A DNA stretch of 64,000 bases. It comes from a virus. Each line of letters opens with the position of its first letter. Position 1 is the first letter of the stretch. Made by a program: the position numbers and the translations under genes. A model generated the notes under the pieces. It had not been told where the DNA came from and did not search any database. It saw nothing but the letters and a program-made list of their open reading frames with translations. Shown here one piece after another: positions 8,656 through 33,044 of this stretch. The stretch lies in the IMG/VR virus record IMGVR_UViG_3300036819_000087, positions 1 through 64,000 of that record. One strand, written 5' to 3'.

Positions 8656-9364
8656 CGGTCTCCCAGCACTCCCCGCACGCCCCCGACCGGCCGACCCGGC
8701 GCCGCGCCGAGTGTTCCCGGCCGTCGCACAGCGCGGCCGCTTTGCGGGCCAGCGGATGCGAGACGGTGAAATGGTCCGGTTCCCACACCGGCCCCACCGA
8801 GGGTTTCCCGTCCCGTTTCCGCTGTTTGGCGCGGATCCGGCGGACCGCGCCGACCGCGTCGGCCGCGGACAGTTCCCCCGCCCGGACCTGCGCTTGGGCG
8901 GCGGGGGCCAGGTCGAGGAGCGCGAGGTAGAACCCGACGGTGGCGTCGGTCATGCCGATGCTCTTGGCGATCCGCACGTTGGAGTAGCCGCGGTCCCGGA
9001 GCCGCCCCATCGCGGTGGCTTTCTCCATGGGGCCGAGGTCGCGGCGGTGGCAGTTCTCGACCAGCATCAGTTCTTCGGCGGCCACGCCGCTGTCGCCGGT
9101 CCGGATGACGACGGGGACCATGTCGAGGCGGCTGCCGTCCGGGCGGCGGACCTTTTTCGCGGCGGCGTGGCGGCGGTGCCCGGCCAGGATCTGGTAGCAG
9201 CCGGGCAGCTCAGGGTGGACCTCGACCACGATCGGCTGAAGGAGACCGTGCCGGGCGATCGACGCGATCGTTTCGGTGAGGTCGCCGAGGTCCTCGCGGG
9301 GGTTGTCCGGATGCGGGTGGATCCGGTTGATATGGATCTGCCGCTGGGCGCTGGTGTGTGTCAC
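8576..9364 (-). CDS. ParB/RepB/Spo0J-family protein
   Basis: HPDNPR, GLLQPIVV, LAGHRR, ENCHRRDL motifs plus HTH. Confidence 0.85.
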   Translation of the reverse strand: MTHTSAQRQIHINRIHPHPDNPREDLGDLTETIASIARHGLLQPIVVEVHPELPGCYQILAGHRRHAAAKKVRRPDGSRLDMVPVVIRTGDSGVAAEELMLVENCHRRDLGPMEKATAMGRLRDRGYSNVRIAKSIGMTDATVGFYLALLDLAPAAQAQVRAGELSAADAVGAVRRIRAKQRKRDGKPSVGPVWEPDHFTVSHPLARKAAALCDGREHSARRRVGRSGACGECWETVIRQDERVVAEALRKVSEAPLALPAG

Positions 9365-9367
9365 CGG

Positions 9368-15800: not shown

Positions 15801-16485
15801 CCCGGTCCCCGGCGCCGCCGCCGGGCCCGTCTTTGATCCACCCGTGGGAGTAGCCGTGCGGGCCTTCCTTCCCGGCGAACTCGGGGTCGTCGAGGTCTTC
15901 GCCGGCGGCGTGGTGTTCGGCGAGGGACTTGACCAGCAGGTCAGCGCCGCCGACCTTCCCGGTGAACTCGGCGTGCCCATCCGACCCGGCGGCTTTGGCC
16001 AGCTCGACGTAGCAGCCCCGGTTCGCTGGCCGGTCCACCAGGCTGATTTCGGCGAGTTCACCGCCCTTGATGATCCCGCCGCGGGCTTTGCCGGTCACGT
16101 CCCGGACGATCAGCGGCTTCGCGATCCCCACCGAGAAGGCCCGCAGGTGGCCTTTCTCGCACATCATCCGGGCGACCGGTTCATCGATCGCGGCCTTGAC
16201 CCAGTGGGCGCGGTCACCGTCCCGGTCGATCTCGACTTTCACACCCGACCCGGCCGGCATGAGGCTGGCGTTGTGCTGGACCCGGACGTTCGGGCCGGTC
16301 TGGAACCACGCCTCCATCGCCTTGGCGGACCAGTCCGGGTCGACGATCTGCTCATCAGAGTCGACCTCGGGGGTGGTGGCCTTCCCGTAGACGTACAGGG
16401 TGCCGGTGGCGGGGTCGGTCTCCATCTTCTCGATGGGGAACGAGTGATAGTAGAGGTCGGGGTCGGCGGTGACGGCAGTGGCCAC
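12853..16485 (-). CDS. HK97-type prohead protease fused to cargo modules and scaffold
   Basis: VRVQH, FSVG and EISLVDRPAN protease motifs in the first ~160 aa; then KEGPHGYSHGW tag, His-rich tract, DUF6582-like module, two Zn fingers, acidic tract, C-terminal coiled coil. Confidence 0.85.
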   Translation of the reverse strand: MATAVTADPDLYYHSFPIEKMETDPATGTLYVYGKATTPEVDSDEQIVDPDWSAKAMEAWFQTGPNVRVQHNASLMPAGSGVKVEIDRDGDRAHWVKAAIDEPVARMMCEKGHLRAFSVGIAKPLIVRDVTGKARGGIIKGGELAEISLVDRPANRGCYVELAKAAGSDGHAEFTGKVGGADLLVKSLAEHHAAGEDLDDPEFAGKEGPHGYSHGWIKDGPGGGAGDREARNMQPGDSHVNGYVVGRLSNGAGGGYGVWQTRRGRAGDAARVVASQGDGEEWARGRGKTVTVELPEDVSVSFSPGDLAKLLDARREAEARMVGKDWTAWDEAHQGEQREAAGKKPDAHQLHVMHEVHEEHLAHLAHQHAEHDAHTAHEAHEAHEAHEEAEEEQAAAARHHTSSGRAKPAAKPEQHQTTAGNLAHAQAITRETAGKAAAADEVDEDDATSPAEPEPRKPRTRAKPMDDDPQETDPAAHAKLDDAQRSGPGAKSTSAQSAKRDFDPNVGGGTDRDALPDSDFAGRDRSYPIKTPQDVHDAATSIGRAGDSNYGPDKLRANITRIAHRKGPQFAARLPGSWQDGAGKAARVDTSEDLTTKSECTLCHGTKTIRDGHVKCPRCKGTGEIGGSPAEADVEKAGKRACKECGKNHHSDFDGSHCEGCGAKLPPARKAGDADAGAVEDTDLAKGKTDDDGGDDLAEDDTASGDDPDDGEDDGDDGDESPEDDDDEDDEASDAKASKAGKPSPGDGVRGEHTTPVPKHREPDGQAIEALEHDARLPTDPDADYEKAAHSRFKTLGVPGDLGRLHDLTCAAYHPADVAKAHPGATLANVVDTDEWARAAFTAATSAPLDEAAKSQVLWQDAVMLKAADPIVLAEVGEAVHKAFQDANPGPGHAPTPSELSPGRFNRPYITAGHAAPSPGHKEPNTARVPASDITAAEFDRGALTAGHAADSPSNKSGRLFYRNTARDQVHQALAAIHDHIAQTFPSLCPMAGSGDAAAAAPAAEGHKSASAGDGDGFGGQDADGLAYDAEGTRKWLAEQVIKGDMPVNEAREVLGLPPLGFPASVPVNATWTGKAAGAGAGAYSPDLIKEALAEVTVPLLARLDEQGEVLARQARLLRKQGKMLNALAEEPDQGVAPYRGPAFPNPASMAPVGSIENPTVTKAAERSQMAVMRNLADEWRNSPDPAMRERAWQALSGQLGIAGNGTTHQ

Positions 16486-16562
16486 ACAGCTCCTACGGGG
16501 ATGGGCGTGTCGGATCGGTAAACAGGGGGCCGGTGGGCCGGTGGGCTGGCAGGATGACCGCC

Positions 16563-16763
16563 ATGTTGCTGAGACTGTTCAGGCAGTGGCGGGCGGGGCG
16601 GGATGTGTGCGCCTGCGGGTGTCCCCGGCTCGCTCACCGGCACCACAACCACGGTTCGAATTGCGGCCGGCATCCGTGGTGCACGCGGTTCCACCAGCCC
16701 GGGGCGTGGCGGTGGGTGATCGCCCGTGACGGCCTGCCGATCCGGGCGCCCAAACGGCGGTGA
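16563..16763 (+). CDS. Small Cys/His-rich protein
   Basis: CACGC...H.H...C...C pattern. Confidence 0.45.
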   Translation: MLLRLFRQWRAGRDVCACGCPRLAHRHHNHGSNCGRHPWCTRFHQPGAWRWVIARDGLPIRAPKRR

Positions 16764-17101
16764 CCCCGGAAGACATTGAGGTCCTGCTGGCCGCTGAGGC
16801 GATCGGGCGGGACTGCTGGCTGGCCGGGCTGCGGGTCAGGTACGGGCTCCGCTGCCACGGGCAGCCCAACCCGGTCCATGTCGGCTGGCCGACGCCGCAG
16901 CGGCCCGCGTGGGAATTTGTGATGGAGGGGACAGCGGTCGTGTCGCTGGACGGGGAACACTGGTGGGCGGTCCCCGGCGGGATGGAACTCGGCGAGTTCC
17001 TTGGCCGGCTACGGGCCGGCGAGCCCGACCCACACCAGGTTGGAGACAGTGTTGCTGGACGGGGTGACGTTGGTGAGGCTGGTCAGCCCGGTCCCGTTTG
17101 A
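16760..17101 (+). CDS. Hypothetical protein
   Basis: GTGA overlap with the upstream small ORF. Confidence 0.45.
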   Translation: MTPEDIEVLLAAEAIGRDCWLAGLRVRYGLRCHGQPNPVHVGWPTPQRPAWEFVMEGTAVVSLDGEHWWAVPGGMELGEFLGRLRAGEPDPHQVGDSVAGRGDVGEAGQPGPV

Positions 17102-17608
17102 CGCGGCCCGGTAGTTCGCCGCCGAAAGAGCCACGTTCGGGATCGAACTGGTCTGGGTGCCGACCTGCCGGATGGTGGGCTGGGACCCGGCCAGGTTCGA
17201 CAAGATCGGCACCCACACGAACGGGATCGACGCCGGGTCGAGGCTGACCACCGTGCCGTAGGGGATCTGCTGCGCGTTCGCTCCAGTGAACTGGGCCGCG
17301 CAATCCGCCGAACTGGTGATCACCGACCCGGCCGGTGACATGAGACCCATGAACGTGCCGGTGCTGGTGCCGCTGCCCGCGGTCGCGTTGATGATCCACA
17401 CCGACGACACCTGGCAGGCGGCCCGGACCGGGACCTTGATCAGGTACTGGGTGCCTTTGGTGAACGTGAACGTGCCCGCGATCGCCCCCGGGCTGTCACT
17501 GGCGGCGACCAGGTTGTTATCCGGGGGGAGCCAGGGGACACCAGCGAACGGGGACTGGGCAGTCGCTTCCAGGAGCGGCACCGTCGGCAGACCAGCGAGT
17601 GGGGGCAT
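17009..17608 (-). CDS. Putative virion structural protein
   Basis: S/T/G-rich beta composition; co-transcribed with the fibre-like genes. Confidence 0.6.
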   Translation of the reverse strand: MPPLAGLPTVPLLEATAQSPFAGVPWLPPDNNLVAASDSPGAIAGTFTFTKGTQYLIKVPVRAACQVSSVWIINATAGSGTSTGTFMGLMSPAGSVITSSADCAAQFTGANAQQIPYGTVVSLDPASIPFVWVPILSNLAGSQPTIRQVGTQTSSIPNVALSAANYRAASNGTGLTSLTNVTPSSNTVSNLVWVGLAGP

Positions 17609-17609
17609 G

Positions 17610-19199
17610 TCAGGCCGCCGTCAGTTCGGTGATCCCGGGCTGCCCGGTGATCGCGTTGAACAAGGTCCGGGCGATGTCACCGTGCCCGGCCCGGTACGGA
17701 TGCACGCTGGTGACCGCGGTCAGGTCGAGCGCTGACGCGGCCGCGTTGCTCCCCCACCATTCACCCACGTCCATGTAGGCGGCATAGTCGTTGCCGAGCG
17801 CATAGTCGAGGAGCGTCGCATAGTACTGGTCCTGGGTGCTGCCGCTGCCCGCACCGTTGGGGTTACGGGGAGAGGCCAGGGCCAGCACCGACCAGCCGTC
17901 CGTGATGGCCTGCCCAATGAACTGGCCCATCCACGTCGTGTAGAGGGACAGGGTCACGTCGTTTTGGGTCGAAGCGCCGCCGCCGGCCTGGAACTGCTGG
18001 TCGTTGGCCCCGAACTCGGCGATCACCAGCCCGGTGGCACCCATCCAGCTTGTTTGCGCCCAGTCGTAGCAGGCGCGGGCCGCGGCGGTCTGGTTGGAGC
18101 TCGACGAGGCCTGGTTCAGCGTCCCGGACACCTGCCCGCCCAGCAGGTCCCCGGACACGTAGCCGGGCTGGCCGATCCGGTGGACGAGCACGCCGGGCTG
18201 CCCGGTTTGCATGTTGAACCCGGCCAGGTAGGACTGGGCGGTCGCGGGGGCGGTGAGGGTGATGGTGTCGCCGGGCTGGACCGCAATGTTGGTGGTCACG
18301 GCCCGGCCGGTGTTGGTCAGCGTCGTCAGGCTGGCGTTCGATACGGTCACCGACCCGGTCTGACTGTAGAGCAGGGACACGTCGTCGAGGCCGGACCCGC
18401 CGGTGTTGAACGCGGCGGTCTGGTTGGCCTGGATCACCCCGACCACATACACCCCGGCCGGAACCGTCAGGCTGACGGTGTTCCCGGACCCGTGGACGAT
18501 CCGGGGCCCGTGCCTGAGAGGGACACAGGGCCAGTTGTTGTTGCTGGTCCCACCGCTCCAGGTGACCCGGGAGTCGTCCGCGAACCAGAACCCCTCCCCC
18601 GGATACGACCCGAACCTGAGCGCCAGCAGGGCCCGCAACTGGCCGGCCCACCCGTTCGCGTTGTCGGGGAGGTTGGAGAAGGCGGACAGGTTGTTGTCGC
18701 CGCCCTGCCCCGCGGTGATCGAGTCGCCGACGCACACGATGGGGACCTGGGAGAACAGGGAGTCGCCGAGCGCGGCCCGCCACCGGCGCAGCCCGGTCGG
18801 GGAGTACAGGGTGGGGCGGGGGGTGATCGAGGAGTAGAGGTGCCCGTCGGTGCCGGTGGTCGCGACCGTGGCCAGGAACCCCGCGGTGACCACCTGGTTG
18901 ACCGTGAACCCCGCGCTGTGAGCCACCGGGGCCGAGTTTTCCGCGCCGCGGGTCACCGTCCAGGTGGTGCCCGACACGTTGGTGACCGCGATGATCTCGC
19001 TGGCCAGGGCGAGGACCGCGTCGGCGACGTGGAACTGGCCCGGCGGGCTCGAACTGGACGAGGCAGGCGGGAACAGAGCCGACGAGGCCACCGTCCAGTT
19101 CTCAACCGTCCCCGCCGCCGGGGCTGTGGTCCCACCCGAAACCACCGTGGTGGCGGCCTGGTTCTCGCCGTTGAACAGTTCAACGGTCGCCGCGGTCAT
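17610..19199 (-). CDS. Virion protein with SGNH/GDSL esterase domain
   Basis: VGDSIT (block I), GAND (block III), VHP (block V) after a fibre-like N-terminus (WTVTRGAE). Confidence 0.75.
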   Translation of the reverse strand: MTAATVELFNGENQAATTVVSGGTTAPAAGTVENWTVASSALFPPASSSSSPPGQFHVADAVLALASEIIAVTNVSGTTWTVTRGAENSAPVAHSAGFTVNQVVTAGFLATVATTGTDGHLYSSITPRPTLYSPTGLRRWRAALGDSLFSQVPIVCVGDSITAGQGGDNNLSAFSNLPDNANGWAGQLRALLALRFGSYPGEGFWFADDSRVTWSGGTSNNNWPCVPLRHGPRIVHGSGNTVSLTVPAGVYVVGVIQANQTAAFNTGGSGLDDVSLLYSQTGSVTVSNASLTTLTNTGRAVTTNIAVQPGDTITLTAPATAQSYLAGFNMQTGQPGVLVHRIGQPGYVSGDLLGGQVSGTLNQASSSSNQTAAARACYDWAQTSWMGATGLVIAEFGANDQQFQAGGGASTQNDVTLSLYTTWMGQFIGQAITDGWSVLALASPRNPNGAGSGSTQDQYYATLLDYALGNDYAAYMDVGEWWGSNAAASALDLTAVTSVHPYRAGHGDIARTLFNAITGQPGITELTAA

Positions 19200-19528
19200 G
19201 GCGTGATCTCCAGGAGCACCGGTTGCTGGACCGGCACCTCGGGGCTGTCGGTGACCTTGATCCACACCAGCCACATGCCCACCGATAGGGCGGTGCCGCC
19301 GTTCGCGGGCCCGACCAGTGCCTGCGCCCAGTAGGCCGGGCCGGGGAACGTCTCCCACGACCCGGTGACCCAATCAGAGCTGGTGGGGGTGACCTGCGGG
19401 TAGGTTTCGCGGGTGAACGCGAACTGGACCTCGTCGCTGGTCGGGTCGTAGCCGTCGGGGCTTTTGACCGTGACCTGAACCTGCACATACTGGGTAGACA
19501 GGGCCGACTGGGTCAGCATGTTCGGCAC
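19196..19528 (-). CDS. Small beta-sandwich virion protein
   Basis: YDPT...VQFAF...VWIKVTDSPEVPV; 4-bp overlap with the next gene. Confidence 0.6.
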   Translation of the reverse strand: MPNMLTQSALSTQYVQVQVTVKSPDGYDPTSDEVQFAFTRETYPQVTPTSSDWVTGSWETFPGPAYWAQALVGPANGGTALSVGMWLVWIKVTDSPEVPVQQPVLLEITP

Positions 19529-19531
19529 GAT

Positions 19532-21760
19532 TTATCCGCCTCCCCTTGATGGCCCGGACGGCCACTTCCACGAGCTGGTCACCGTCTCCCACGTGTGCCG
19601 CGCCGCCCCGGCCACCCACCGGAACCGCGCCTGCCCCGTGCTGTAGATGACCGTGATTTTCTTCGGGATGAACGCGGCCATGCTGGCGGCGGTGTGCAGC
19701 ACAGCGGCGACGACGACCGGGAACACCCGCCCCGCATGCCCGGCCACACCGACCAGGCCGGCCAGCCGGGCGGACATGACCCGCCGGGCTACCGCCGACG
19801 TGGCGGCCGTCGCGGCATGGACGGCGGCCAGCCCCCGCACCGTGGCTGCCGACGTGGCCAGCGTCGCGGCGGCGGCCACCTGCCGCACCCGGGCCGAGGC
19901 CACCGACGAGGCCGAGGTGACAGTGGCGGACAGGGCGCGGGCCACGACCCGGGCCGTGCTGGCCGAGGTGGTGAGGGTGGCGGCCTGACGCTGCCACACC
20001 GACCGGGCCGTGCTGCCCGCCACGGTCACCGTCGCGGCCAGGACCTTGCCGGGGTTCGCGGACCGGGCTCCGGTCAGCGCGGCCAGCGCGGTCAGCGTGA
20101 TCTGCCGGACCTTGATCATGGCCGCCGACGCGGCCGTGCCGATCGTGGCGGCCAGGTCGACCGCTTGCCGGCGGCCCGCCGACCCGGCCACGTTGACGAG
20201 GCCAGCCAGGTGGAGGGACCGTGCCACCTGACTGGCCAGGCTGCCCGCAGTGGTCATGGCCGCGGCGAGGGCGCGGCCGGTGCGGGACTGGACAGCCGCG
20301 GCCGTCACCACCTGCCCGGCCAGCGCGATCAGGTGCACCGCAGCGGCCGCCAGCGTGCCCGCCGCGGTGACTGTGGCGGCGACCGCACGGCCGGCCCGGC
20401 GGGAAACCCCACTCGAGAGATTCGCGACCGCGGCCAGGACCCGGCCCGTGACGCTGGCCAGCCGGGCGGCCGTGGCCACCTGCCCGGCCAGCGGCTTCCC
20501 AGCCTGCCGGCCAAGGCTGCCCGTGGTGGCCACGGCCGCCGCCAGCCCCCGCCCCGTACGTCGCGCCTGGAACGCCCCTACCGTCGTCTGCGCGGCCAGG
20601 GTCAGAAGGTGCGCAGCCCCGGCCGTCAGCGCGCCCACGGCCGTGACGCTGGCAGCCAGGGCACGTTTCGCCTGCCGGGTCAAGGTCGCGGCCGTGGCCA
20701 CTGTCGCGGTGAGGGCCCGGCCGGCCCTCCGCGTGATCGCCGCGGCCGTGGCCAGCGTCGCGGCCAGCACGAGCGTGAACGCTGACGACGACGGCAGCAG
20801 AGGCCGCCCCGGGTTGGCCAGGCCGGGCTGCATGTAGCCGGGAACGGCAGGGAACCCCTTGTTCAGCGGCCGCGGTATCCACCCGCCCGCCCCGGTCAGC
20901 GTCGCGGCCAGCACCCGGGCCACGCGGCGGGTCACCGACGAGGCCGTGACCACCGTGGCGGGCAGCGGCTTGCCCGCCCGGCTGGACCTGGCCGCCGCCG
21001 TGGCCACCGACGAGGCCAGCGGCTTCCCTGCCCGGCCGGCCCGGGTGGAGGTCACGTTGACCGAACTGGTCACGGTCAGGTCGTGGGTGACCGGGCCGGT
21101 GCCGCCGGCGAGGACCTCGGCGCCGATCGACGCCCACCAGTCGCTGCCGTTGATCTGCCACGCGACCGTCACCGGCGACCCGGTCGAGGGACTGGTCGCC
21201 CCGGCTGCGTTCCCGGCCGCCGAGTTGGGTGAGAAGTCGCTGATCCATTGGGAGGTGGCCGGGCTCGTGGGCGGGTTCAGCGCTGACCCGCAGCACGCCC
21301 CCGCGTCGACGATGTTCCCCGACGTGGTCGCAGTGATCGTGGTAGACGCGGTGCCGCCGGACCCGAAATCGGTCACTGGCGTGCCGATCCCGGTGGTCTG
21401 GTCGGCGCCGAGGTAACTGGTCGACCCGGCCTCGACCGACCCGTCCGGGGCCGTGTTCATCGTGGCGACCACCGACGCGGAACCGGCCGGCGGGTTGATC
21501 AGTTTCCACAGCGTCGTGTAGCCGGCGGTCTGGTCGTTGGAGTGGACCGGGCCGGCGGCCAGCGTCATCGCCGACCCGCCGTAGGTGACCCCGGTGACCG
21601 TATAGGCGGAGTCGTTCTGGTCGTCGGCGCCGACGGTGACCCGGGCCAGCAGGAGCCCACCAGACCCGGAACCCATCACATGCGGCCAGGAGATACTCGA
21701 CGGGGCGGTCGCGGCCGTACCAGCCGAACCAGGGCCGACCGTGTCGAATGCCAGGGTCAC
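19532..21760 (-). CDS. Repeat-rich fibre-like virion protein
   Basis: Globular N-terminus followed by about 20 imperfect ~19-20-aa repeats (R..GR.LAA.V.T.A). Confidence 0.7.
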   Translation of the reverse strand: MTLAFDTVGPGSAGTAATAPSSISWPHVMGSGSGGLLLARVTVGADDQNDSAYTVTGVTYGGSAMTLAAGPVHSNDQTAGYTTLWKLINPPAGSASVVATMNTAPDGSVEAGSTSYLGADQTTGIGTPVTDFGSGGTASTTITATTSGNIVDAGACCGSALNPPTSPATSQWISDFSPNSAAGNAAGATSPSTGSPVTVAWQINGSDWWASIGAEVLAGGTGPVTHDLTVTSSVNVTSTRAGRAGKPLASSVATAAARSSRAGKPLPATVVTASSVTRRVARVLAATLTGAGGWIPRPLNKGFPAVPGYMQPGLANPGRPLLPSSSAFTLVLAATLATAAAITRRAGRALTATVATAATLTRQAKRALAASVTAVGALTAGAAHLLTLAAQTTVGAFQARRTGRGLAAAVATTGSLGRQAGKPLAGQVATAARLASVTGRVLAAVANLSSGVSRRAGRAVAATVTAAGTLAAAAVHLIALAGQVVTAAAVQSRTGRALAAAMTTAGSLASQVARSLHLAGLVNVAGSAGRRQAVDLAATIGTAASAAMIKVRQITLTALAALTGARSANPGKVLAATVTVAGSTARSVWQRQAATLTTSASTARVVARALSATVTSASSVASARVRQVAAAATLATSAATVRGLAAVHAATAATSAVARRVMSARLAGLVGVAGHAGRVFPVVVAAVLHTAASMAAFIPKKITVIYSTGQARFRWVAGAARHTWETVTSSWKWPSGPSRGGG

Positions 21761-21815
21761 ACGTCACCCCCTGGCCCTCCAGGCATACGCGACGGACCAG
21801 GAGCAGGGTGTTCGA

Positions 21816-22502
21816 TTATTGCGGTATAAGCTGGGCACTTGCCGTAAATTGTATCGAATCACCGGAGTTGAGCGCCAACCCAGTGAAGCTGGCGTGGAGG
21901 AACAACTGCTCGGAGATCGCGGTGCCGCCGGGCCCGTCGCCGGCGGTGATCACGTCGGCGGTCGCGATCGACCCGAACGCGGTCGACCCGTTCTGTGCCC
22001 GGGCCACCGTCAGCGACGTGCCACCAGAACCGGTGAGGACCTGGAGAACTTCGGAGTCGACCTGGATGAACGTCGAGTTCGCCGGGGTGTAGTTCGCGGC
22101 GATCGTCAGCGTCGTCCCCGAGGTGGAGGCGACTGCGGCCCCACCGGTCACTGTCGAGGAAAACGGCTTGGTGGTGGTGTTGAACAGGCCCATCTCCGAG
22201 ATGGTTTCGGCAGTGCCCGCAGTGATCGTGCCGACCGCCTGATACGTGTCCTCACTGAACACGGTCGTGGTCAGGCTCGACCCGGACGGCGTGATCCGGG
22301 CCTCGGGCGCCTCATGGAACAAGCCCACGTCACTGGTCGCTGCGGACCCGGCACCGAGCCCGAACCCGGCGTTGCCCGAGTTCCCGCCGAGCCCCCATCC
22401 CATGTCCGCGGGCAGGGTCCCGTACTTGGTGCCCGCAAGGTTGAAAAACCGGTCCATGATCATGGACGCGCCCGTGCGGGTGACGTGCACAAAGTTGGCC
22501 AC
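21816..22502 (-). CDS. Virion structural protein
   Basis: ISEMGLF...FTGLALNSGDSIQFT pattern seen in fibre-base proteins. Confidence 0.65.
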   Translation of the reverse strand: MANFVHVTRTGASMIMDRFFNLAGTKYGTLPADMGWGLGGNSGNAGFGLGAGSAATSDVGLFHEAPEARITPSGSSLTTTVFSEDTYQAVGTITAGTAETISEMGLFNTTTKPFSSTVTGGAAVASTSGTTLTIAANYTPANSTFIQVDSEVLQVLTGSGGTSLTVARAQNGSTAFGSIATADVITAGDGPGGTAISEQLFLHASFTGLALNSGDSIQFTASAQLIPQ

Positions 22503-22509
22503 ACAGCCC

Positions 22510-22770
22510 CTATCTGGCTATTTGCCGGTTGGTTCGCTTGATCCGCCGGTCGGCCAGGCGGGAGCCGGCCAGCCGCCACCACGCCGCCTTGACGGGGTTG
22601 CTGTATGTCGCGGCCACCACCCCGAGATCGTGGACGACCGCCGGTTCCGTGTTCCCGCACCCGCCGCACGGCCGGCCCGGGTCACGGCGGTACCCGCACC
22701 GGTCGCAGCCGCGGATGACCACCGCGGCGACCTCGGCCTGCCCGAACGGGACCGCACCGGGCCCGTTCAC
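22510..22770 (-). CDS. Small CxxC protein
   Basis: Two CxxC pairs; GTGA coupling. Confidence 0.5.
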   Translation of the reverse strand: MNGPGAVPFGQAEVAAVVIRGCDRCGYRRDPGRPCGGCGNTEPAVVHDLGVVAATYSNPVKAAWWRLAGSRLADRRIKRTNRQIAR

Positions 22771-23903
22771 CGCCGCCGGCCCAGTTCCTCGTCCAGGCCC
22801 TGCCGGTCCATCGCCGCCTGGATCAGCCGCAGAGACGACGCCGGGACACGGCCGCCACTGCGGGCCTGCCGCTGAAATTCGAGGTTCGCGGCAGCGAGCT
22901 GGCGGGGGGTGAGCGCGGCGACGAACTGGTCCCGCAGGCTCGGTTTCAACGCCCGCAACGTACTGGTCACCGCCCCGCCGTCCTTAGCCTGGGCGGCCAT
23001 CCGAGCGATCGTCTCCGACTGGTCCGGTTTGGGTGCCCGGGACTGGCGGGCGGATGGTTTCCCTGCGAGCCGGTCCCGGATCATCTGGTGGGTGTCGGAC
23101 ACTTCCCCGTGGCGGCCGAGCGTGTCGGCTACATGGGTGAGGTACGAGTCCGCGGCCCGGGCCTCGGCGTCGGACAAGCCGGCCACGGCTTGCCGGCGGC
23201 CGCGTACCCCCCCGGTCGCGCCCCTGGACTCGATGAAATTGACGGCAGACTTGCCCGGGTCGGCGCCCTGCCGGCCCATCGCGGCACCGCCGCGGGCGTG
23301 GAAGTCAGCGACCCGCTCGGCCGCTGGCCGGGTGTCCTCACCGAGGCGGCGTGGTGGCTTGGCGGCGGCGTCGCTGGCCATCACGCCGAGGAGGTCCACC
23401 CCGGCGGCGGCGTGCTGCGCTTGTGATTCGCGGCGGCTTTGCCGGCTGCCTGGCACGTCGAACAGGGACAACGGCTCGGACTCGTCGAAATCTTGCCGCC
23501 GCATCGCCGTCCAGTCCCGGCCACCGGTCTGCCCGGCCGGGGCTGCGGCCTCGGCCGACAGCAGGTCGCCTTGCTGGCTACCCCGGCCCGGTTTGACGGA
23601 AGGGGCCGGGTTGTCGGTGGCCAGGCCGCGCGGCACGAAGTGGCCCGCACCGTTGCCGCCCCGCCCCGCGCCGGGACGGTGCTCGAAGCTGTGCTCGGCC
23701 CCGGAGTCGAACCGGACCCGCACCTTCCGGCCGCCGACGCCGGTGACGCGCCCTCGGCCGAGTTCGGGGTGCTCGATCTGGCCGCCCCCTCCGGGGATGC
23801 CGACGAAAATCCACCCGTGGATGTAGCCGTGGGGGCCGACCTTGAGGAGGTCGGCGAGCTGGGCGGCGGTCATCCGGGTCGGGGTGTCACTGGTCACCGT
23901 CAC
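22767..23903 (-). CDS. [11 protein letters not shown]-tagged head-cluster protein (class B adaptor plus unknown domain)
   Basis: Tag at 23811-23843 followed by HP.LG.G.V...VRFD.G SH3-like segment; GGAGG RBS. Confidence 0.7.
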
Positions 23904-25318
23904 GGGGCACCTCCGCTGTCGTTTTTGCCGTGGTCCATGCGGGCGTGCTGGGCGGGCCAGTAGCCGAGGGCCTCGTGGTGCAAGTTGTTGCAGTAGCCTT
24001 TTGCCTGGTCGGGGGTCATGTGGGCGTGTTCGGTGACCAGGGCGACACAGCGCATGAAGTCCCCGTCGGTGCCCCACTTGATGGCGTCGGCGAAGGCGTA
24101 GTGGGTGGGGCCGCCGTGCCCGTGCCGGGTCCAGTACTCGCGGAGCGTCCGCGCGGCGCCTTTCTCGACCGTGTCGCCGTCGAGGGCGTCGAGGACGGGG
24201 CCGAGCGACGCGGCCAGCTCGGGCCGGACCGCTGGGTTGTCGCGGAGGAGGCCGGGCGCCCACCAGGCCAGCGCCTCGGTCTGGTCACCGTCGGGGTCGT
24301 CCGGGTTGATCACCTCGTCGCGGCCCTCATGGATCGGCACGTCCGCCTCGGCTGGGACGGTCAGCACGAACCCCTCGTAGATGCCGTGCCGCCACCGGCC
24401 GGTGATCTGGCCGCGGGGTGGCTGGCAGCCGGTCTCCTCGGCCCACTCCCGGGCCGCGCCCATGATCGGGGTTTCCCCTGCCTCGATGTGGCCGCCGGGG
24501 AACTCCCACATGCCCGCAGCGGGGTCATCCGGGTCGTTCGCGCGTTGCAGCATGAGGACACGGCCGGTGTCCTCGGCCCGGACGGCCAGGCCAGCGACCT
24601 CGGCCGTCTTGGTTTTGCGCACGGCCGCGCCGCAATGCGGGCAGCCCCGGTCGTGGACGGCCTGGTCGCGGAACACCTCGTCGCAGAACGGCGCGGTCAG
24701 CTCGTTGCCTTCGAGGGTGCCGCTGGCGTCGCACCGGTAGCACTCGTGGCCGGTCGGGTGCTCGCCTGCGCCTCCGCAGCATCCGCAGCCGACCCGGCTG
24801 GTTTTCCCGGACGGGCCGGGTGGGCGGCCGCGGGGCCCGTGGCCGCCGGGGCTGGACGTGCCGGCCTGCTGGCTGCCGTGGCCACCTTGCGGCCACCAGC
24901 CGTCCATGTACGTGTTCGGCCAGTCGGTGCCCGGCCGGGTGGGTACGCCTCGACCGGATGGGGCGGCCGCGTCGTCCTCGTCGTCGGGGACCGTGGCCAC
25001 ACGCGGGACGGGCTGGTCACCGTCCCACCGTGGATAGTCCCCGCCCGCCGACGGGCCCACGGAACCGCCTTGGGCGCTAGCCGGGTCGAGGGGGCCGCCG
25101 GGGCCGTGCTGGGCGCCGTTCGCGTCATGCGGCCGGTGCACTGCGGCACCGCCGCCCGCGCTGTAGCCGCCGGGGTCATCCTGCCGCTGGTCGGTCCAGG
25201 TTTCCTGCCCGTTCAGGTCAACCGTGCGGCCCTTGCTGGTGTCGTCCAGGCCGAGGTCGATGTGGCCGACCAGGTGTGGCTGGAAGTCGGCCATCCGCTC
25301 GGCCATGCCCCCGGTCAC
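23900..25318 (-). CDS. Multidomain NUDIX hydrolase, head-cluster protein
   Basis: Complete Nudix box [23 protein letters not shown]; Zn finger upstream; C-terminal LREYW...[12 protein letters not shown]...KGYC module. Confidence 0.8.
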
Positions 25319-27108
25319 GCGGCCACCGACTTCGGCAGGGCCACGAAATAGGCGTCGGTGACATCCACGCGGCCAGGGTGGGGGCCTGACTTCAGGAACG
25401 CGAGCGGCTGGCCAGCGTCGAGGATGACCTCGTTTTCGGGGAACTCGGCGGCCGTGCCCGTCCACACCACCGGGGTTCCGGCTGGGGTCATGATGTGCAT
25501 GACCGTGGTCCCGGACCGGTTGGAGGCGAACCGGCCACCCGGTGACAGGGTGGTCGAGGAGAACCCGGGGTCGGCGATCACGTCGCCGCGGGCCAGCCCA
25601 TCGAACGTCATCGGGCCTTCGATCTGGCGGAGGAGGGTGAGGTCCTCGGGTAGCGGCTGCATCGCCGACGACAGCGCGGCGGCGACCGGGCCACCGTCGC
25701 CGTCGGCTCGCAGGCCGCCGTTGACCGCGGTGTACTCCGGGCCGGTGTATGCCTGGATGGCCTTGGCCTGCCCGGGGGTGTAGTGGAACGCGGGGTCGAG
25801 GTGCTCCTGGCGGTACTGGGTGGCCTCGTCGAACCGGAGTTCGCGGGGATGCAGCGTCCCGGCGTGGTCGCGGGCCCACTGGCCCGCGTGCTCGCTGATC
25901 TCCTCGCCCGCACCGGACCGTACCCAGTGGCCGTGGGAGCCGCGCAGCTCGTGCTCCCACGCCGCCTTGATCACGGCCTCGGCGAGCGCGGCCTGGTGCT
26001 GCGCGAGCACGTCCTCGTAGCCGTTGAGGTCCTCGGCCTTGACCACGGGTTTCGGCCAGGTGCCGGTGATGTCGAGGCCGTGGACCACGGTGGGCATCGG
26101 CGCGCACCTACAGTTGGGATGACCTGGTGGCCCCAGATCCCCTGACGGGAACAGGGCCAGGAGCGGGATGCCACCCTCGGCCTCGTTCCTGCGGCACACC
26201 GGGCAGACCCGCTCATCGGGGGCGACCGCCCACTCTTTCCCCTCGACCCCGTGCTCGATGTACTGGTCGAAACTCGCTGCGGTGACGGCCCGGGCGATCT
26301 CGGTCCGGGCGATCATCGGGGCCCGCTGAGGCACCCGCAAGATGCTCTCGAGTCTCCCCGCGAGGTCTTCCCACGAGTCGCCGTTGGCGACGGCGTCGGC
26401 GATCTCGTCGGCCAGATCTTGCATCCTGGTCTGGGCGATCGACCGGATCATGGAGATGCCGTGGGAGGCCAGCAGTGCCTGGAGGCGGGGGGCGGTCGCG
26501 ATGCCCTGGGCGGCTTCGAGGTCACCGGGTGTCCAGGTCCCCCAGTCGGGGATCTCCTGGCGGGCGATCCCGCGGGCCGAGTGATGCCCGAGGTACCACG
26601 CCTCGGTCCAGAGCCGCCGCAGCGTGGCACCGACGTGGGCGCCGATCCCGTCGGAGATCAGGTCAACGAGGCCCTGCCTGGTTGCGGCCAGCCGGCCCGC
26701 CCACCAGTCCCGCAGCAGACCCGTCGCGTTACTGGTCGCCGCTTTGAACGCTTGGGTGATCTGGTCGGTGTAGACGCTGGCCAGCGTCAGGTCATAGACC
26801 CAGCCAGGCCAGGCAGCGGGCGTCGGAGGGGCCGGCGGGACTGGTTGACCAGCCGGGCCCGTCGGCGGGGTCGGTGGGACTTTTGGGTCAGCATCGCCAC
26901 CCGCGGCGGCGGCCTTGCTGGTGTGGCCGGACGGTTCGGTCCACACGTACCCGTTGCTGTACCCGTCGAGGTAGGCGGCGGCACCACGCCGGGCGGCCAC
27001 GTCGGCCATCGACTGGAGGCCGGGGGTGGAGGCGACCAGGCCGTTGCCGGTGTCGGTGATCGTCCCGGCCGGGCCCCGCGCGGTGTGCACCGTCCAGACC
27101 GCGGTCAC
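25315..27108 (-). CDS. MuF (phage Mu gpF-like) minor head protein fused to an ADP-ribosyltransferase
   Basis: [17 protein letters not shown] and PPGHPNCRC MuF motifs; C-terminal R...FSSTT...ENE (R-S-E, VIP2-like). Confidence 0.88.
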
Positions 27109-28490
27109 GCCGCTGCCTCGTTCTCAGCGTCGGCGACCCGGTCGCGGAGCCGGGTGAGTGCACCCATCGTCTGGTCGAACATTTCCTCGGGGAACAGGTC
27201 AGTGGCGTACTCGGTGTCATCATCGTCGTTGAGGGCGTTGAGTTCGCGGGCCGCCTGGTCAAACGCGGGCTTGATCGCTTCTACCCGGGCGGTGATCGCG
27301 TCGAGGCCGGCGGAACTGATCGGCGTGTTCCCGTCGTCGAGTTCTTCGAGGAGGTGGTCGGTGAATGGGCTGGTGTTGCCCAGCCAGCCGGTCCCGTCGT
27401 CGGCGAGCGCCTCCCACGTGCCGTTGTTGTCGATCGGGACGGGGGTGCCGTCGCTGGCGATCAGCACGTTCCCGGAGTGCCGATCCTGGTGGCCGGTGAT
27501 CGCGTCGAATACACCGATCCGGGCCCCGGCCGGGGTGCTCATCGCCTTGGTCAGAGACCCCGTGGGTGCTTCGGCGCCTGGTGTCGCGTCCCCGACGAAC
27601 GGCATGTAAACCTCGCGGGGGCTGGTCCTGACAATGTGCGGGGCGCCAGCACCGACCGCGTCGGCGACACGGGAGGCCAGCAGATCACGGATGGCGTTCG
27701 CCTTGGAAACCTTCTCCGTGATCGGGTTGTGGGTGCCGGACGGGTATTCCTTGTGCACCCACTTGCTGCCGTCGGGGAACGTCTCGATGGTGGTGTACGC
27801 CTGCATGCCCTCGGTGGACGGCGTTTTCACCGTGGGTTCACCGGACCGGAACGCGGCGGCGAGCCGTTTGGCGGTCTCCTCGTGCCCCTCCCCCGCGGGC
27901 TTCTCGGACCGCCACGTGCCCGCTACCGGGCCGGGTTCCGGTTTACGGGCGGCTGGGGTGTGCATGGGCCCGGGTGCGGCTTGGTCTGCGGGCCGGGCCC
28001 CCGCCTGGTTGGCTCGCCTGTTGTACCGGCGGGACACCGACCTCAACGCGGCACCCCGGCTGTCGTGGCTGGTCTGGTCGCCGTTGGCGTGGTGGGCGAC
28101 GAACAGGCCGTTCTCGTCCCGGGCCACGTGCCCGACCGCCCAGCCGGTCTTGCGGTGGACGATCCCGCCATCTTTGGCGACGGCCAGGTCGTCGGCCTTG
28201 ATGTGGCCAGGCTTCTCCCCACAGGGCGGCCGCACACAGATGTACCCGTGGATGTAACCCTCGGGGCCGACTTTGGTCAGGTCCGGGACGAACGCCTTGG
28301 CCAGCTCGCCGCGGGCTGCGGCGAACCCCTGGTGCCATGCGGTCGCGGCCTGCCGGACCAGCAACGGGCCCGCATGCGGGTCTGGTGCCGGATGGTCGAG
28401 GACGCCGCCGGCGTGGCGGGTGTGGGCGGCGCGGCGGCCGGCCATGTGCGCGGCGGCGATCACGTCACCGCGGTCAACTACCGGGGCCAC
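27105..28490 (-). CDS. Tagged head-cluster protein with HipA/PI3-PI4-kinase-like domain
   Basis: KVGPEGYIHGY tag; WVHK, FDAITGHQDRHSGNVLI and PIDN kinase motifs. Confidence 0.78.
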   Translation of the reverse strand: MAPVVDRGDVIAAAHMAGRRAAHTRHAGGVLDHPAPDPHAGPLLVRQAATAWHQGFAAARGELAKAFVPDLTKVGPEGYIHGYICVRPPCGEKPGHIKADDLAVAKDGGIVHRKTGWAVGHVARDENGLFVAHHANGDQTSHDSRGAALRSVSRRYNRRANQAGARPADQAAPGPMHTPAARKPEPGPVAGTWRSEKPAGEGHEETAKRLAAAFRSGEPTVKTPSTEGMQAYTTIETFPDGSKWVHKEYPSGTHNPITEKVSKANAIRDLLASRVADAVGAGAPHIVRTSPREVYMPFVGDATPGAEAPTGSLTKAMSTPAGARIGVFDAITGHQDRHSGNVLIASDGTPVPIDNNGTWEALADDGTGWLGNTSPFTDHLLEELDDGNTPISSAGLDAITARVEAIKPAFDQAARELNALNDDDDTEYATDLFPEEMFDQTMGALTRLRDRVADAENEAAA

Positions 28491-28518
28491 GTGATCAACC
28501 TGTGATCAGCTACCGAGG

Positions 28519-29433
28519 TCATGCGTAGAAGTCACCCCCGCGCGGTCCGCCCCCGGCGGCCTGGCCGAGGAGCATCGACTGGAAATCGGCGCTGGTGGGG
28601 CGCCCGTTCTGGTCCCACCATTCGCCCAGCTCGGACGAGGCGTATTTGCGGGCCCGGTTCTCGGGTCCGGTGAACAGGGACCACGGGTCGATGTCGGCTT
28701 TCTGGCCTTCCCGGTTGAGCATGACCCCGTTCGTGGCGGCCTCGGCGTCGAGGACCCGGCGTTGCACATCGGTTTTGAAGGCGTCGCGGGCGAGTTCCTC
28801 GAAGTTGCGGCCCTTGAATCCCTGGGTGCGCAACTGCTGGATGGACGCTTGCCGGGTCATCGTGTCGGTGTCGGTGCCGTAGGAGTGCGCCCAGGCGTCC
28901 TCGGGGTTTTCCCCCTCGTCCACCAGCCCCTGATAGACCCGGTTGCGGTCCCCTTCCGATGTGGGGGTTTGGGCGTAGAGGCCAGCGACGCGGGCTTTGC
29001 GTTCGTCGCGGTCGCGGCGGTCGAGTTCGGCGACCGCGTGCTCGAACCGCTTCCCATCCCCGGACGCGAGTTCGCGGGCGAGTTCGTCGTCGGTCATCCG
29101 CTCGAAGTGGCCGGGGCCCTGGCCGGGCCGGACCGGGAACGAGGCGGCGTGGCCGTCGTCGAACGCGACCGACACGTGCGGGTGGCCGTGCTCACCTGCG
29201 GGCTCGGATTCGGTGACCTGCCCGTGCCCGTGGTGCGGGTGGAACACGTGGTCGCCGGCCGCGGGGATGCCCACGAAGATCCAGCCGTGGATGTAGCCGT
29301 GCGGACCCACCTTGACCAGGCCGGCGGCGGTGGCGGTCTTGACTGCGGGGCTGGGCAGCATCGCGTCGAGCAGCACGTCGTCGCAGCGGAAATCGTCGGG
29401 GAACCATGAAGGGAGCCCGGCCTTAGTGGGCAC
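28519..29433 (-). CDS. [11 protein letters not shown]-tagged head-cluster protein (class B adaptor plus unknown helical domain)
   Basis: Tag at 29281-29313; C-terminal AEAATNGVMLN...ARKYASSEL.EWW..NGRPT module. Confidence 0.72.
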   Translation of the reverse strand: MPTKAGLPSWFPDDFRCDDVLLDAMLPSPAVKTATAAGLVKVGPHGYIHGWIFVGIPAAGDHVFHPHHGHGQVTESEPAGEHGHPHVSVAFDDGHAASFPVRPGQGPGHFERMTDDELARELASGDGKRFEHAVAELDRRDRDERKARVAGLYAQTPTSEGDRNRVYQGLVDEGENPEDAWAHSYGTDTDTMTRQASIQQLRTQGFKGRNFEELARDAFKTDVQRRVLDAEAATNGVMLNREGQKADIDPWSLFTGPENRARKYASSELGEWWDQNGRPTSADFQSMLLGQAAGGGPRGGDFYA

Positions 29434-32400
29434 TGAAATCGCCTTGCGGACCGAGCTGGACGTAGGTCATGCCGTTTTTCTGCGACACAGACTGGACCGG
29501 GAACCGGCCACCGGTGACGACCTCTTGAAGTTTGGCGCGGTATTCGAGTTCGCTGCCGCCGCCTTCCTCGATGGGGCTGAGGTCCAGGCCCTTCGCGCCG
29601 GGAGCTGCCACGATGACAACACCCCCCTCGCCGCCGAACGCTTTCGCTGTGTCCTCTGACTTGCCCCACGACGCGATCGGGAGGTCAACGGTTCCGCCGG
29701 CCTTGAACATGCGGCGGATCTCGGCTGACGGGAGGGTCAGGCCCCGGTACAGCGGCGTGCGCTGGGCGGTGGCGTCGTCCTCGATGAGTTTCATGAAATC
29801 GTGGGCGTCGCGTGCACCGGGTGTCATGGTGGCCGGTGGTTTCCCGGTCTTCAGGAGGCGGTGCAATTCGTTTGTGAATTGGGCGTCACGGAGAGTGCCC
29901 TGGGTCCGGTTTGAGTACCGGAACGCTTTCGTCCACATGGTGGTCAGGCGGCGTTTCTCAGCCAGGTTGACGCCGCCGGCTGGTGTGGGCGGGGCGGCCG
30001 GGTTCTCATGGGAGTGGGAGACCCCCACGCCACCGAGTGTCCTGCTTATGCGTTCGCTGGGTGGTTTATGCATCTCCTCATGCCGCGTGAGAAGATCCTT
30101 TTTCGGCGGGTTTTTGCTGCCTATGCGGCGGCCGATAGCTGGGCCGCCGCCGTGGTAGTTCTCCAGGTGGTGGATGAGTTCGTCTTTACTCATCCGGTTC
30201 GCGGGGGTCGAGCTAGTCGCAGGTTCGTGCTCGTGCTCGTGCTCGTGCTGTGGTGCTGGTTTCGCTGTGGCTGGGCGGCTGGTACTGCCCGAGTTGTGGT
30301 GGCGGGCGATCGCCTTGACCGCATCGGGGCGGGCGCCGTGGACGGTGCGGCTGCCATCGGAGTGGTTTGCGGTCCACCCGCCGGCTTCACTGCGGGCGAC
30401 ATGCCCGACCGCCCACCCGGACGGCTTGTGCACGACTCCGCCGTCCGAACGGACCGTCAGATCCGCGGCGCGGAGACGGGCTGGCTTCTCCCCGCACGGC
30501 GGCCGGACACACACCCAGCCGTGGACGTACCCCTCGGGGCCGACCTTGCCGACGAACGAGCCGGCGGCCATGCTGGTTGCCTCGTCGACGGTGAAGCCCT
30601 TATCCAGGTCTTCCGCGATCTCGTCGAGGATCTCGCCGGACAGGTGCCGCGGCTCCCACGTGCCGACCGCGCGGCCCTTGCGGAGGTGCCGGGCAAGCGC
30701 GTCGAGTTCAGCCAGCGCCGCCTTCGAGGCGGGGTGGGGCTGGGGGTGGCCCAGCAGGCCCTGGACCAGGGTGCCCGGGATGAAGTCGGGGTCGGCGGGG
30801 AACTTCCCGGCCGCGACCTGCGCGGCCGCGGCCGACACGATCCCCGTCGCCACCGTGTGCGCGGCGTCGTGCTTGAACACGTCGGGGTCGTCGCCGAGCA
30901 TGGCCGCCTCGATCCGCTCGGCCTCGGCCGACTTGTCCGCGCCCGAGGCGGAACGCTGGCCGCCGCCACGGCCGCTCCCGGTCCCGTGTGCGGCGACGGC
31001 GGCGTCGTGGCCGGGTGACTGCCCCCGGGCGGGCGCCTGGGCGGCCGTGGCCCGTCCTGGGCCGGTCTGCGGCTTGGCCTGGCCGGCGGGCAGCGCGGCG
31101 CGCTGCGGCGCGCCCGCCACCTGCTGCGGGGCACCGGGCTGGCCAGGTGGCGCGCCGGCGGGGTGCGCGGCGTCCGGCTGCGCGAATCCGGCCTGCGGCT
31201 GCCCCTGGGTGTTCATCTGCCCCAGCGGCAGGAACCCCGTCGCGCTGGCCCAGCCCGGGTCGCTGGTCTCGGGCAACCCCCACGGCTGTTTGCCGATCTC
31301 GCCGCGGCCCTCGTCGATCGACAGGAGCCCGGCACCGATCTGGGTGACCAGCGTGGTCGTCTTGGTGGCCTCATCCTCTTCCTCTTCGAGCCCTTCGAAG
31401 AGGAACCGCATGTCGTCCTGGTGACAGACCTCTTGCAGGACAAAGTCGCAGATCGCGCCGATATATTCGAGGGTCGGCTTGGTCGCTTTCCGTTCCTGGC
31501 TGCCCTGGCTCATTTTGGCCATTTGGTTGGACGCGCCCGGCGACATTGTGGTGGAAACCTTGGGGGCGATACCGAGTTCCATCGGGGACACGTCGAACGA
31601 CATGCACACCCAGTTCATGACAACCTCGTCGAACTGGTCCGCCAAAGCGGCCGGCCGCTGCGGTTCCGTCTTGGACCCGGGCGGGAGAACGATGATCTTG
31701 TGGTGAAATGCGGGGTCGCCGGCGATCGCGTTCAGGGCGTCCTGGAGCTCGCGGATCTGGTTCGGGGTCATCGTCGCGTCGCCCGGCGAAATGTACACGG
31801 CGGGGACCGTGCCCTCGCGGAAAAAGTCCAGCGCATAGCCCTGCTTCTGCAACCCGGCCATGATCGGCAGGAGGGCCCGCTCCACGGGCGGGAACCCGTA
31901 CGGGGTCCAGCGGCGCTTCTCCACCGGCAGGTACAGGAGCTGGTCGCCGCGGAACTTTTTCCACGCCGACTCGCCCACCCCGGACTGCTCAATGTCCCGG
32001 CCAGTGATCACCGACGTGAGGTCGGTGCGGGGCACCCCGTACAGGTACTGCTGGTAGCCGGGCGCCGGGGGGCGGGGGGTGGCGCCGTTCAGGTCATACA
32101 GGGGCCGGATCGTTTCCCCATCAATCAGGCTGAACGAGTCCAGGTCCGACCCCAGCAGTCCCTTACCCAAACCCCGGGCCCGCTTCGGCTGCAAGAAAAT
32201 GGACAGCGCGTCGAAAACGAGCATCTGCTCCATCGCGTCGCCGATCCAGCTCGACCACGTGAAATAATCGGGATCCGGGCGGTGAAAGAACCGCATGGCC
32301 TTCCCGCGGCGTTCCCCGAATTCGCGCATGGCTTTTTTGTCGCCGCGCATCGCTTTGGCCGCGTCGGGGGTCGGGACAATATCCCACCCGATGCCCTTGA

Positions 32401-32812: not shown

Positions 32813-32847
32813 GGGCACCTCCCCCGGGTGTGGTTGGCTGGTGCTCG

Positions 32848-33044
32848 TGATGATCAAAATGGACGTGTACGCGGCGGCGGGTGAACGGTTCGCGCCGGGC
32901 GTGTTCACCGACGTGGTCGGGAAGCCGGCCACCTGGACCGTGGGCGGTCAGGCGTGGCTGGGCCGGATCTGGTCGGCGAACATGGCCGACGACGGGACCG
33001 AGGCGACCCTCGCGATCGAGGTCGAGGATCCGCCGGCGGCGTAA
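32848..33044 (+). CDS. Small hypothetical protein
   Basis: Plausible beta-protein composition; start approximate. Confidence 0.4.

Follow-up and report, generated by a model that had tools for sequence, protein, structure and literature searches.

How the proteins that are carried in the capsid and injected are chosen is understood for only a few model phages, mainly T4 and, to some extent, the giant phages. In T4, IPI-III and Alt are directed to the prohead core by a short peptide at their N-terminus, the capsid targeting sequence (CTS), which is cleaved off by gp21 (PMC7411985). The ejection proteins of SPN3US and phiKZ-like phages have propeptides of more than 100 residues that are poorly conserved and share a 3-residue cleavage site (PMC7411985, PMC10052503). 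Iyer et al. 2017 (PMC5512222) described phage polyvalent proteins and portal- or MuF-fused effectors and proposed that they are processed by zincin-like metallopeptidases, and MuF polymorphic toxins were described by Jamet et al. 2017 (PMC5576092). We analyzed the first 64 kb (hereafter, the window) of the 107,282-bp IMG/VR record IMGVR_UViG_3300036819_000087 (G000), a phage genome estimated to be 96% complete, with 71% guanine plus cytosine (G+C). An original prediction, made from the letters of the window, had noted that five proteins of the head module share an 11-residue peptide, here called the tag, and had proposed that it is a packaging or ejection signal, probably exposed by cleavage after a lysine. 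As judged from sequence comparisons, our analysis supports the tag as a modular header: it lies at the N-terminal border of modules that carry different domains downstream.

The tag fits the pattern K-x-G-P-x-G-Y-x-H-G-[WY], which matches the window at exactly 5 sites; each is on the minus strand and translates exactly as had been predicted. The copy in the portal open reading frame (ORF) is KVGPEGYVHGW (30515-30547; residues 796-806) and lies between a helical domain and a small domain that we call class A. A second copy (29281-29313) occupies residues 41-51 of ORF H and is immediately followed by a Tudor-like barrel; KVGPEGYIHGY (28242-28274) occupies residues 73-83 of ORF G, before another class A domain; and a fourth copy (23811-23843) begins at residue 21 of ORF D, again before a Tudor-like barrel. 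The fifth, KEGPHGYSHGW (15838-15870), occupies residues 206-216 of ORF A, at the head of an inserted cassette that follows the protease domain. When the pattern was back-translated, the 5 matches in the window compared to 0.00 in 100 dinucleotide-preserving shuffles, and a profile search of the whole record found no copy beyond the five. Between pairs of window tags, codons differed at 1 to 6 of the 7 to 11 identical residues. Because the codons differ synonymously between copies, the tag is conserved at the protein level, in agreement with the original prediction.

A profile of the tag was searched against 1.84 billion representative proteins (E up to 1e-3), which gave 583 matches; the sequences of 150 of these were examined, and conservation was profiled over 238 unique tag copies. 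Information content was 0.1-0.3 bits upstream of position -7, rose at -6, was 3-5 bits from -2 to +11 and returned to background after +15; conservation was bounded to -6 through +15, with flanks of 0.1-0.6 bits. The 11 residues first noticed are real, but they are not the full extent of the motif, as the conserved unit is approximately 20 residues with the consensus [P/A][D/E][LIV][VT]K-VG[P/K/A]xGY[IV]HG[WYF][IV]xVG. In a second form, [IV][DE]L replaces [VT]K, often after W[DE][DE][VL], and a third form reads K-[LI]-G-GP. The tag had been thought to start at a lysine, and the window copies do; however, a whole lineage has leucine before VGP, and the lysine is therefore not universally required. 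Among the matches listed, K and L flanks were never mixed within 74 multi-tag proteins, compared to approximately 37 mixed proteins expected by random assortment. A protease of the type encoded by ORF A was found in 5 of 5 K-flank genomes searched and in 0 of 2 L-flank genomes searched. Self-cleavage was rejected as the main explanation of the tag, as none of the residues that could serve as its nucleophile (Ser, Thr, Cys, Asn or Asp) is conserved in the motif, and DNA binding was rejected, as the sequence around the tag carries a net negative charge in the Leu-flank lineage.

The tag had been put forward as a peptide of which no description was known, and our searches agreed. No Pfam-A or NCBIfam family covered it even at E up to 10, the weak Tudor-type matches lying downstream only, and PHROGs families matched only the domains beside it. 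A full-text literature search for the peptide returned only two chemistry papers with chance strings, and nothing relevant turned up in the literature searched for a head-cargo signal in actinophages.

The tag was always located at the head of a module. Among the matches listed, 46 of 76 proteins with a single tag had it in their first 60 residues, and no tag was closer than 61 residues to a C-terminus; successive tags were a median of 275 residues apart. Several genes start only 3-12 residues ahead of the tag, for example as M-D-L-VGPKGYIHG. Gene starts of the form M-x(2-8)-tag were found in P0100, P0052, P0076 and P0119 and in the ORF H orthologues P0152, P0163, P0166 and P0172, and most ORF H orthologues open with M-x(2-6)-[ILV]-x-[KR]-VGP. 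A pure cleavage site would be unlikely to persist at the extreme N-terminus of separate genes, as there would be no reason for one there. The ORF H orthologues terminate in GDFYA, whereas fused forms run on as S-V-T-W-D-D-L-A-x-x-V-I-E-L; the borders of modules therefore fall at the unit formed by linker and tag. In 6 MuF homologues, the tag begins 8-14 residues after the MuF domain, and tags are also present at internal junctions of portal-MuF-cargo polyproteins of up to 3,508 residues (P0043). The tag-headed cassette of ORF A is an insertion: the orthologue in a related genome, G001, has no cassette, and the protease-scaffold protein of another, G002, has a degenerate tag at the same place and a canonical tag approximately 95 residues later.

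P0043, P0003 and P0001 are single polypeptides of 2,181-3,508 residues that combine a portal, a MuF domain and several cargo modules. A portal ring made of proteins of this type would tether 12 copies of every module in the head.

Structure prediction placed the tag outside folded domains. In the AlphaFold2 model of ORF H (31-sequence alignment), the mean predicted local distance difference test (pLDDT) score was 80.5; the barrel (residues 62-100) and a helical domain (residues 107-288) were confident, and residues 11-50, tag included, had pLDDT below 50. In the model of portal residues 714-905 (11-sequence alignment), confident helical and beta/alpha domains flanked a low-confidence stretch that was exactly the tag. 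The tag is thus the most conserved segment yet is predicted to lie outside both neighboring folds, which is typical of a linear motif that acts by binding a partner or by being cut. A role as the first strand of the following domain was considered and rejected, as AlphaFold2 leaves the tag unpacked in 2 contexts and the same core precedes unrelated sequences.

The modules that begin with the tag had been described as having unrelated downstream sequence. The downstream domains do differ, but the directly adjoining sequence is largely shared: 4 of the 5 window tags precede a small, adaptor-like domain of one of two recurring types, class A or class B, and the variable cargo therefore starts further downstream. 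In BLAST comparisons among window proteins, ORF G residues 29-180 matched portal residues 725-905 (40% identity, E 3e-35), and ORF D residues 134-230 matched ORF H residues 34-129 (45% identity, E 2e-18). The class A domain starts with CVRPPCG, spans approximately 75 residues and has a confident beta/alpha fold, for which Foldseek returned no informative match and no PDB match was found. Class B is the Tudor-like barrel. A profile of 17 copies matched the UvrD C-terminal domain 7egt_B (E 8.6e-5), Foldseek aligned the model with 7egs_B and 6yi2 (TM-score on the target 0.5-0.7, root-mean-square deviation 2.4 Å over 44 columns, with weak E-values), and Pfam matches to CarD_TRCF_RID and PcrA_UvrD_tudor were below cut-offs. 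By these matches, class B is assigned to the UvrD/PcrA/CarD/Mfd-RID group of RNA-polymerase-binding Tudor domains. The cellular UvrD/PcrA/CarD-type Tudor domain binds the beta subunit of RNA polymerase, and ORF H and ORF D, given a barrel of this type, may be aimed at host RNA polymerase.

Cargo found behind the tag, or behind the tag and adaptor, included Arr-ms-type and exoenzyme-type ADP-ribosyltransferases (ARTs), a PI3/PI4-kinase-like region, Zeta-toxin/AAA_33 kinases and a helical domain associated with MuF, VG15 or minor capsid proteins. Cargo starts as near as 4-10 residues after the tag, in the case of an Arr-ms-type ART. Polyvalent layouts were present in the window (portal with class A and ART-like domains; MuF with ART) and in relatives (portal with Arr-ms ART; MuF with NUDIX and ART; the polyproteins of up to 3,508 residues).

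In a scan of IMG/VR, 72 distinct tag copies were found at 24 loci, on contigs of 49-71% G+C. Among 185,579 prokaryote genomes there were 4 tag loci, 3 of them in metagenome-assembled genomes (MAGs) of Actinomycetota and 1 probably due to chance; on a Streptosporangiaceae MAG contig, a tagged polyprotein follows the terminase and portal. A tblastn search of tag-containing segments against 50,697 GenBank phage records returned nothing, which does not imply absence, as the motif is too short for BLAST statistics. G001 and G002 have portals 54% identical to that of the window and carry 20 tags over 32 kb and 20 over 55 kb, respectively, on one strand, around the portal, MuF and protease-scaffold genes. 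In the window, all 5 tags lie between the portal and capsid genes. The original prediction had looked to a profile search of other proteomes for support, and the search returned head-module contexts with variable downstream domains and very few occurrences elsewhere. Judged by gene context, confinement of the tag to head-module genes is supported.

Tagged polyproteins take up approximately one-third of the genome in G001 (L032/L033, 61.9-93.9 kb) and G002 (L034-L037, 46-101.5 kb). G002 is a provirus according to IMG/VR, and 2 of its tagged genes lie past the capsid gene, in a stretch of genes with putative connector or tail functions.

The tag was also present in phages that resemble G000 little. 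A complete Leu-flank genome of 125 kb (G006) shares with G000 little beyond a tag-plus-Tudor segment and a few enzymes, and neither the ORF A protease nor Peptidase_S78 had a match in it. Its portal belongs to phrog_113; the portal families of tag-bearing phages are phrog_2662/phrog_12 and phrog_113. In a BLAST comparison at E 1e-4, the portal of tag locus L029 did not match the window.

Our preferred explanation, which we hold with about even confidence, is that the tag is a portable header, a linear motif of approximately 20 residues that is read as the head assembles and serves as a label for addressing, processing or both. The tag would mark the N-terminal edge of cargo modules that belong to, or are fused to, proteins located inside the capsid, namely the portal C-terminus, MuF-like proteins and the protease-scaffold. 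The core, VGPxGY[IV]HGW[IV]xVG, would be bound in trans by one conserved reader, and this binding would recruit free-standing tagged proteins into the assembling procapsid or retain them there. The upstream flank ([DE][LIV][VT]K or [IV][DE]L) would be the site at which the lineage's own prohead protease separates fused modules. Released modules would then exit the head together with the DNA and act at an early stage in the host; they would comprise 2 ADP-ribosyltransferases, a kinase-like enzyme and 2 proteins with a UvrD/CarD-type Tudor domain. The presence of the ORF A protease in K-flank genomes and its absence from L-flank genomes suggest that the flank is the protease site and that the core has another, shared function. 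The 46 of 76 tags near an N-terminus, taken together with the precedent of the T4 CTS, support a header or targeting role.

Several observations weigh against this explanation. The core is near-identical across phages without BLAST-detectable similarity in portal, terminase or protease, and a phage-encoded reader would therefore have had to keep its binding pocket while the rest of the protein diverged beyond recognition. A phage-specific reader does not readily explain a tag shared by phages with unrelated portals, terminases and proteases; alternatively, the reader may not be phage-encoded, or the tag may be inherited baggage in some phages. Not every junction is tagged, as P0043 has 2 tags in 3,508 residues. 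The apparent link between flank and protease type comes from 7 genomes and is confounded by shared ancestry, and the consistency of flanks within proteins may reflect common descent of the copies. All tag-bearing phages are uncultured, the portal of the closest GenBank phage isolate being at most 27% identical to that of the window, and the packaging and cleavage of tagged proteins are purely inferred.

The universality of the core could possibly be due to a reader pocket frozen by its many clients, to a generic feature of the procapsid or to a host partner. The portal was considered as the reader and is an unlikely one, with two portal families among tag-bearing phages and the L029 portal without a BLAST match to the window. 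A broader form of the header explanation, in which the tag would be an address code for capsid cargo that is portable across lineages and is read by a common procapsid feature or by a conserved host machine, seems to us somewhat unlikely.

Part of the evidence for a header is also what would be expected if the tag were a maturation-cleavage linker only, at which a prohead protease or a self-cleaving step cuts polyproteins and which has no targeting role. The tag lies in predicted unstructured linkers between domains and at the junctions of very long portal/MuF fusions that would hardly be functional uncut, and its flank residues vary by lineage, as protease specificities do. However, approximately half of the single-tag proteins carry the tag at their own N-terminus, some of them 3-8 residues after the Met, where a cut would release nothing; the conserved residues number at least 16, far beyond the need of known prohead-protease sites; and the nucleophile that self-cleavage would call for is not conserved. 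We therefore consider a linker of this kind improbable. Another explanation moves the action of the tag to the time after injection, when a host factor would read it, either as a docking peptide (for a protease, a chaperone or a polymerase-associated hub of Actinobacteria) or as a leader for threading or refolding. A host-conserved partner would fit a core that is kept across phages with unrelated head proteins, the names of homologues and MAGs are those of Actinomycetota (Streptosporangiaceae, Mycobacterium, Trebonia, Amycolatopsis, Nocardia), and many tags directly precede a Tudor domain of the RNA-polymerase-binding type. Nevertheless, the tag is found only in head-module genes and in capsid-interior proteins, including a protease-scaffold with no obvious host role, the tag-bearing phages span 49-71% GC, which suggests varied hosts, and no known host-binding motif resembles the tag, so that a host reader is rather unlikely in our estimate.

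The pattern of the tag would suit a beta-hairpin (strand, GPxG turn, strand), and a structural or self-associating element of this type could complete the adjoining domain or pair tags with one another to condense cargo. Many mutually compatible copies per genome would explain the extreme conservation, and the adjacency of 4 of the 5 window tags to one of two recurring small domains is in keeping with it. This role is quite improbable, however, as AlphaFold2 packs the tag against neither downstream domain in the predicted models and the same core precedes at least 4 unrelated kinds of downstream sequence, one of them an ART 4-10 residues on. The position of the tag at module boundaries, and nothing else, would favor chance similarity or a recombination junction conserved at the DNA level only. 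This is refuted by the lack of matches in shuffled sequences, by the synonymous codon differences between copies and by protein-level conservation across genomes of 49-71% GC, and its probability is negligible.

The head module of G000 is encoded on the minus strand in the order terminase, portal, H, G, F, E, D, 4 further genes, A and a capsid candidate; the coordinates of the genes and domains in it are all for this strand. The large terminase subunit (39312-40931) forms its upstream boundary. The gene assignments of the original prediction were upheld, those of the portal by PF04860 and of ORF F by its MuF and ART domains, and those of the kinase and the prohead protease on weak matches. The portal ORF with its C-terminal extension (29423-32932) has PF04860 at residues 166-544 of 1169 amino acids; its likelier start is GTG at 32812, with GGGGGAGG in front, giving a protein 40 residues shorter than from the start at 32932. 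Its layout is a portal domain, a low-complexity linker, the helical domain, the tag, the class A domain (30278-30514; CVRPPCG ... DL.V..DG.VVHK.SG ..., with a confident beta/alpha fold), a His-rich linker and an ART-like C-terminal domain (29426-29980; residues 985-1169). The ART-like domain had no match in a Pfam search; it had a protein Atlas feature score of 0.95 to ADPrib_exo_Tox clusters, which is a lead only, and its homologues terminate tagged proteins of G001 and G002.

ORF H (28519-29433) consists of a leader, the tag, the Tudor-like barrel (approximately 29131-29262) and a helical domain of a type that forms the C-terminus of MuF, VG15 or minor-capsid proteins in other phages. ORF G (27105-28490) has a helical leader, the tag, the class A domain (approximately 28011-28241) and a PI3/PI4-kinase-like C-terminal part; the kinase label comes from a weak PI3_PI4_kinase match (E 0.0035; 3.5e-6 in a relative). 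ORF D (22767-23903) starts with GTG at 23903, with GGAGG 6 bases upstream, and has the tag, the Tudor-like barrel (approximately 23664-23792) and then approximately 300 residues without an assigned function. ORF E (23900-25318) is untagged and has a NUDIX domain (24245-24595), zinc-ribbon-like CxxC pairs and a phrog_6439 C-terminal domain. The domain at ORF E residues 294-434 (window 24800-25230) recurs directly upstream of the tag in at least 9 other proteins (P0124, P0133, P0090, P0003, P0006, P0005, P0148, P0035 and P0021), and a domain of this type may be a preferred preceding module.

ORF A (12853-16485) encodes a protease-scaffold protein of 1,210 residues, the N-terminus of which is probably an S78-type prohead protease (predicted at 15991-16485). 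This call comes from weak Peptidase_S78 matches at the orthologous place in 3 phages; a phmmer search of the domain against PDB sequences returned nothing. The protease is followed by the tag-headed insertion, His/Glu-rich repeats, zinc-ribbon-like CxxC motifs, an acidic tract and a conserved scaffold-like C-terminus. The repeats are His/Glu/Ala repeats of the HEAHEAHEAHEE type, the CxxC pairs have a weak DnaJ-CXXCXGXG match, and the acidic run is approximately 50 residues long. Directly downstream lies the candidate major capsid protein (10954-12795; phrog_13692), which is 63% identical to its G002 counterpart and is assigned by position, because a Pfam search gave no match. Between ORF D and the protease, the head module is interrupted by 4 untagged genes (17009-22502), which encode a 742-residue glycine-rich protein with a minor-tail-like N-terminus (phrog_2106), a GDSL esterase protein and 2 small ORFs. 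A fusion of a ParB-like domain and a DNA methyltransferase is encoded at 41710-43386, just upstream of the terminase region, and a second ParB-like nuclease-type gene is found at 8579-9367, downstream of the capsid gene.

ORF F (25315-27108) has no canonical tag. It contains a MuF domain (26101-26418; PF04233 at residues 231-336) and an ADP-ribosyltransferase domain (25408-25782; PF03496 at residues 443-567). A peptide before the ART had been taken for a looser variant of the tag. The peptide is present, but it is a separate type of header rather than a degenerate tag copy: it lies at 25924-25959, between the MuF and ART domains, fits W-x-H-E-x-R-G-x-x-G-x-W and was not matched by the tag profile, and the KVGP tag does not fit its pattern. 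There were 4 more clear copies of this second header in tag-bearing proteins (P0017, P0057, P0060 and P0134), located at N-termini or junctions, and one copy is at residue 7, directly before an ART-like start. Distant ORF H homologues have an intermediate form, GPHEWRHGWIPLT, at the orthologous N-terminus, which hints that the tag and the second header are of common origin.

If the header explanation is true, it would explain how portal-, MuF- and protease-linked polyproteins become separate injected enzymes and how effector cassettes are exchanged between phages, and the tag would offer an easy way to recognize virion-delivered anti-host effectors in metagenomes by their sequence. The tag could also become a handle for loading chosen proteins into phage capsids. 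If the tag is an address code across lineages, effector cassettes could pass from one phage to an unrelated one without losing their loading, release or delivery; with the second header type, this would point to a general, as yet undescribed grammar of phage-head cargo.

Systems of this kind are already known, as capsid targeting and processing signals and as polyvalent or MuF-fused effectors; the tag peptide itself, its breadth and its sharing between unrelated phages appear to be undescribed. Like the T4 CTS, the tag is a short N-terminal peptide on several unrelated head proteins, including an ADP-ribosyltransferase, and the same double role, targeting to the prohead interior and processing by the protease, is proposed for it by analogy. 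However, the two have no sequence resemblance, and the CTS is confined to T4-like phages, whereas the tag is near-invariant across phages with unrelated head genes. Unlike the CTS, the tag is also found at internal positions, namely polyprotein junctions, with as many as 20 copies in one genome. The proteases differ as well, as gp21 cuts at an L/I-x-E-type site and the protease of the window is S78-like on weak matches. Encapsulin cargo-loading peptides are short conserved peptides by which otherwise unrelated cargo binds to the inner face of a shell with the HK97 fold. They differ from the tag in being usually C-terminal and in having another consensus, and binding of the tag to the capsid would be an analogy only.

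Polymorphic toxins have demarcation motifs, VENN in CdiA and DPxGL in Rhs. The tag resembles these in being a short conserved peptide located exactly between a constant part and interchangeable C-terminal modules. In contrast, the CdiA and Rhs systems (PMC3482391) belong to bacterial secretion and have other sequences, and the Rhs motif lies in an aspartyl protease that cleaves itself, of which there is no sign here. In gene content, the head module resembles the polyvalent and MuF systems, in which strings of effectors (ART, NUDIX, kinases) are likewise fused to portal or MuF proteins in the head module and are presumed to be injected. ORF F has the layout of a MuF toxin, with an N-terminal MuF domain and a C-terminal ART, and the gene directly downstream is ORF E, with its NUDIX domain. 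A word search of PMC5512222 and PMC5576092 found no conserved junction or header motif, and the tag differs from the described fusions in that it also heads free-standing genes. Finally, in the giant phages, as proposed here, a large set of proteins inside the head is loaded first and subsequently cut by the prohead protease at a short motif that they have in common; the shared element there is a 3-residue site, whereas here it is a conserved peptide of approximately 20 residues.

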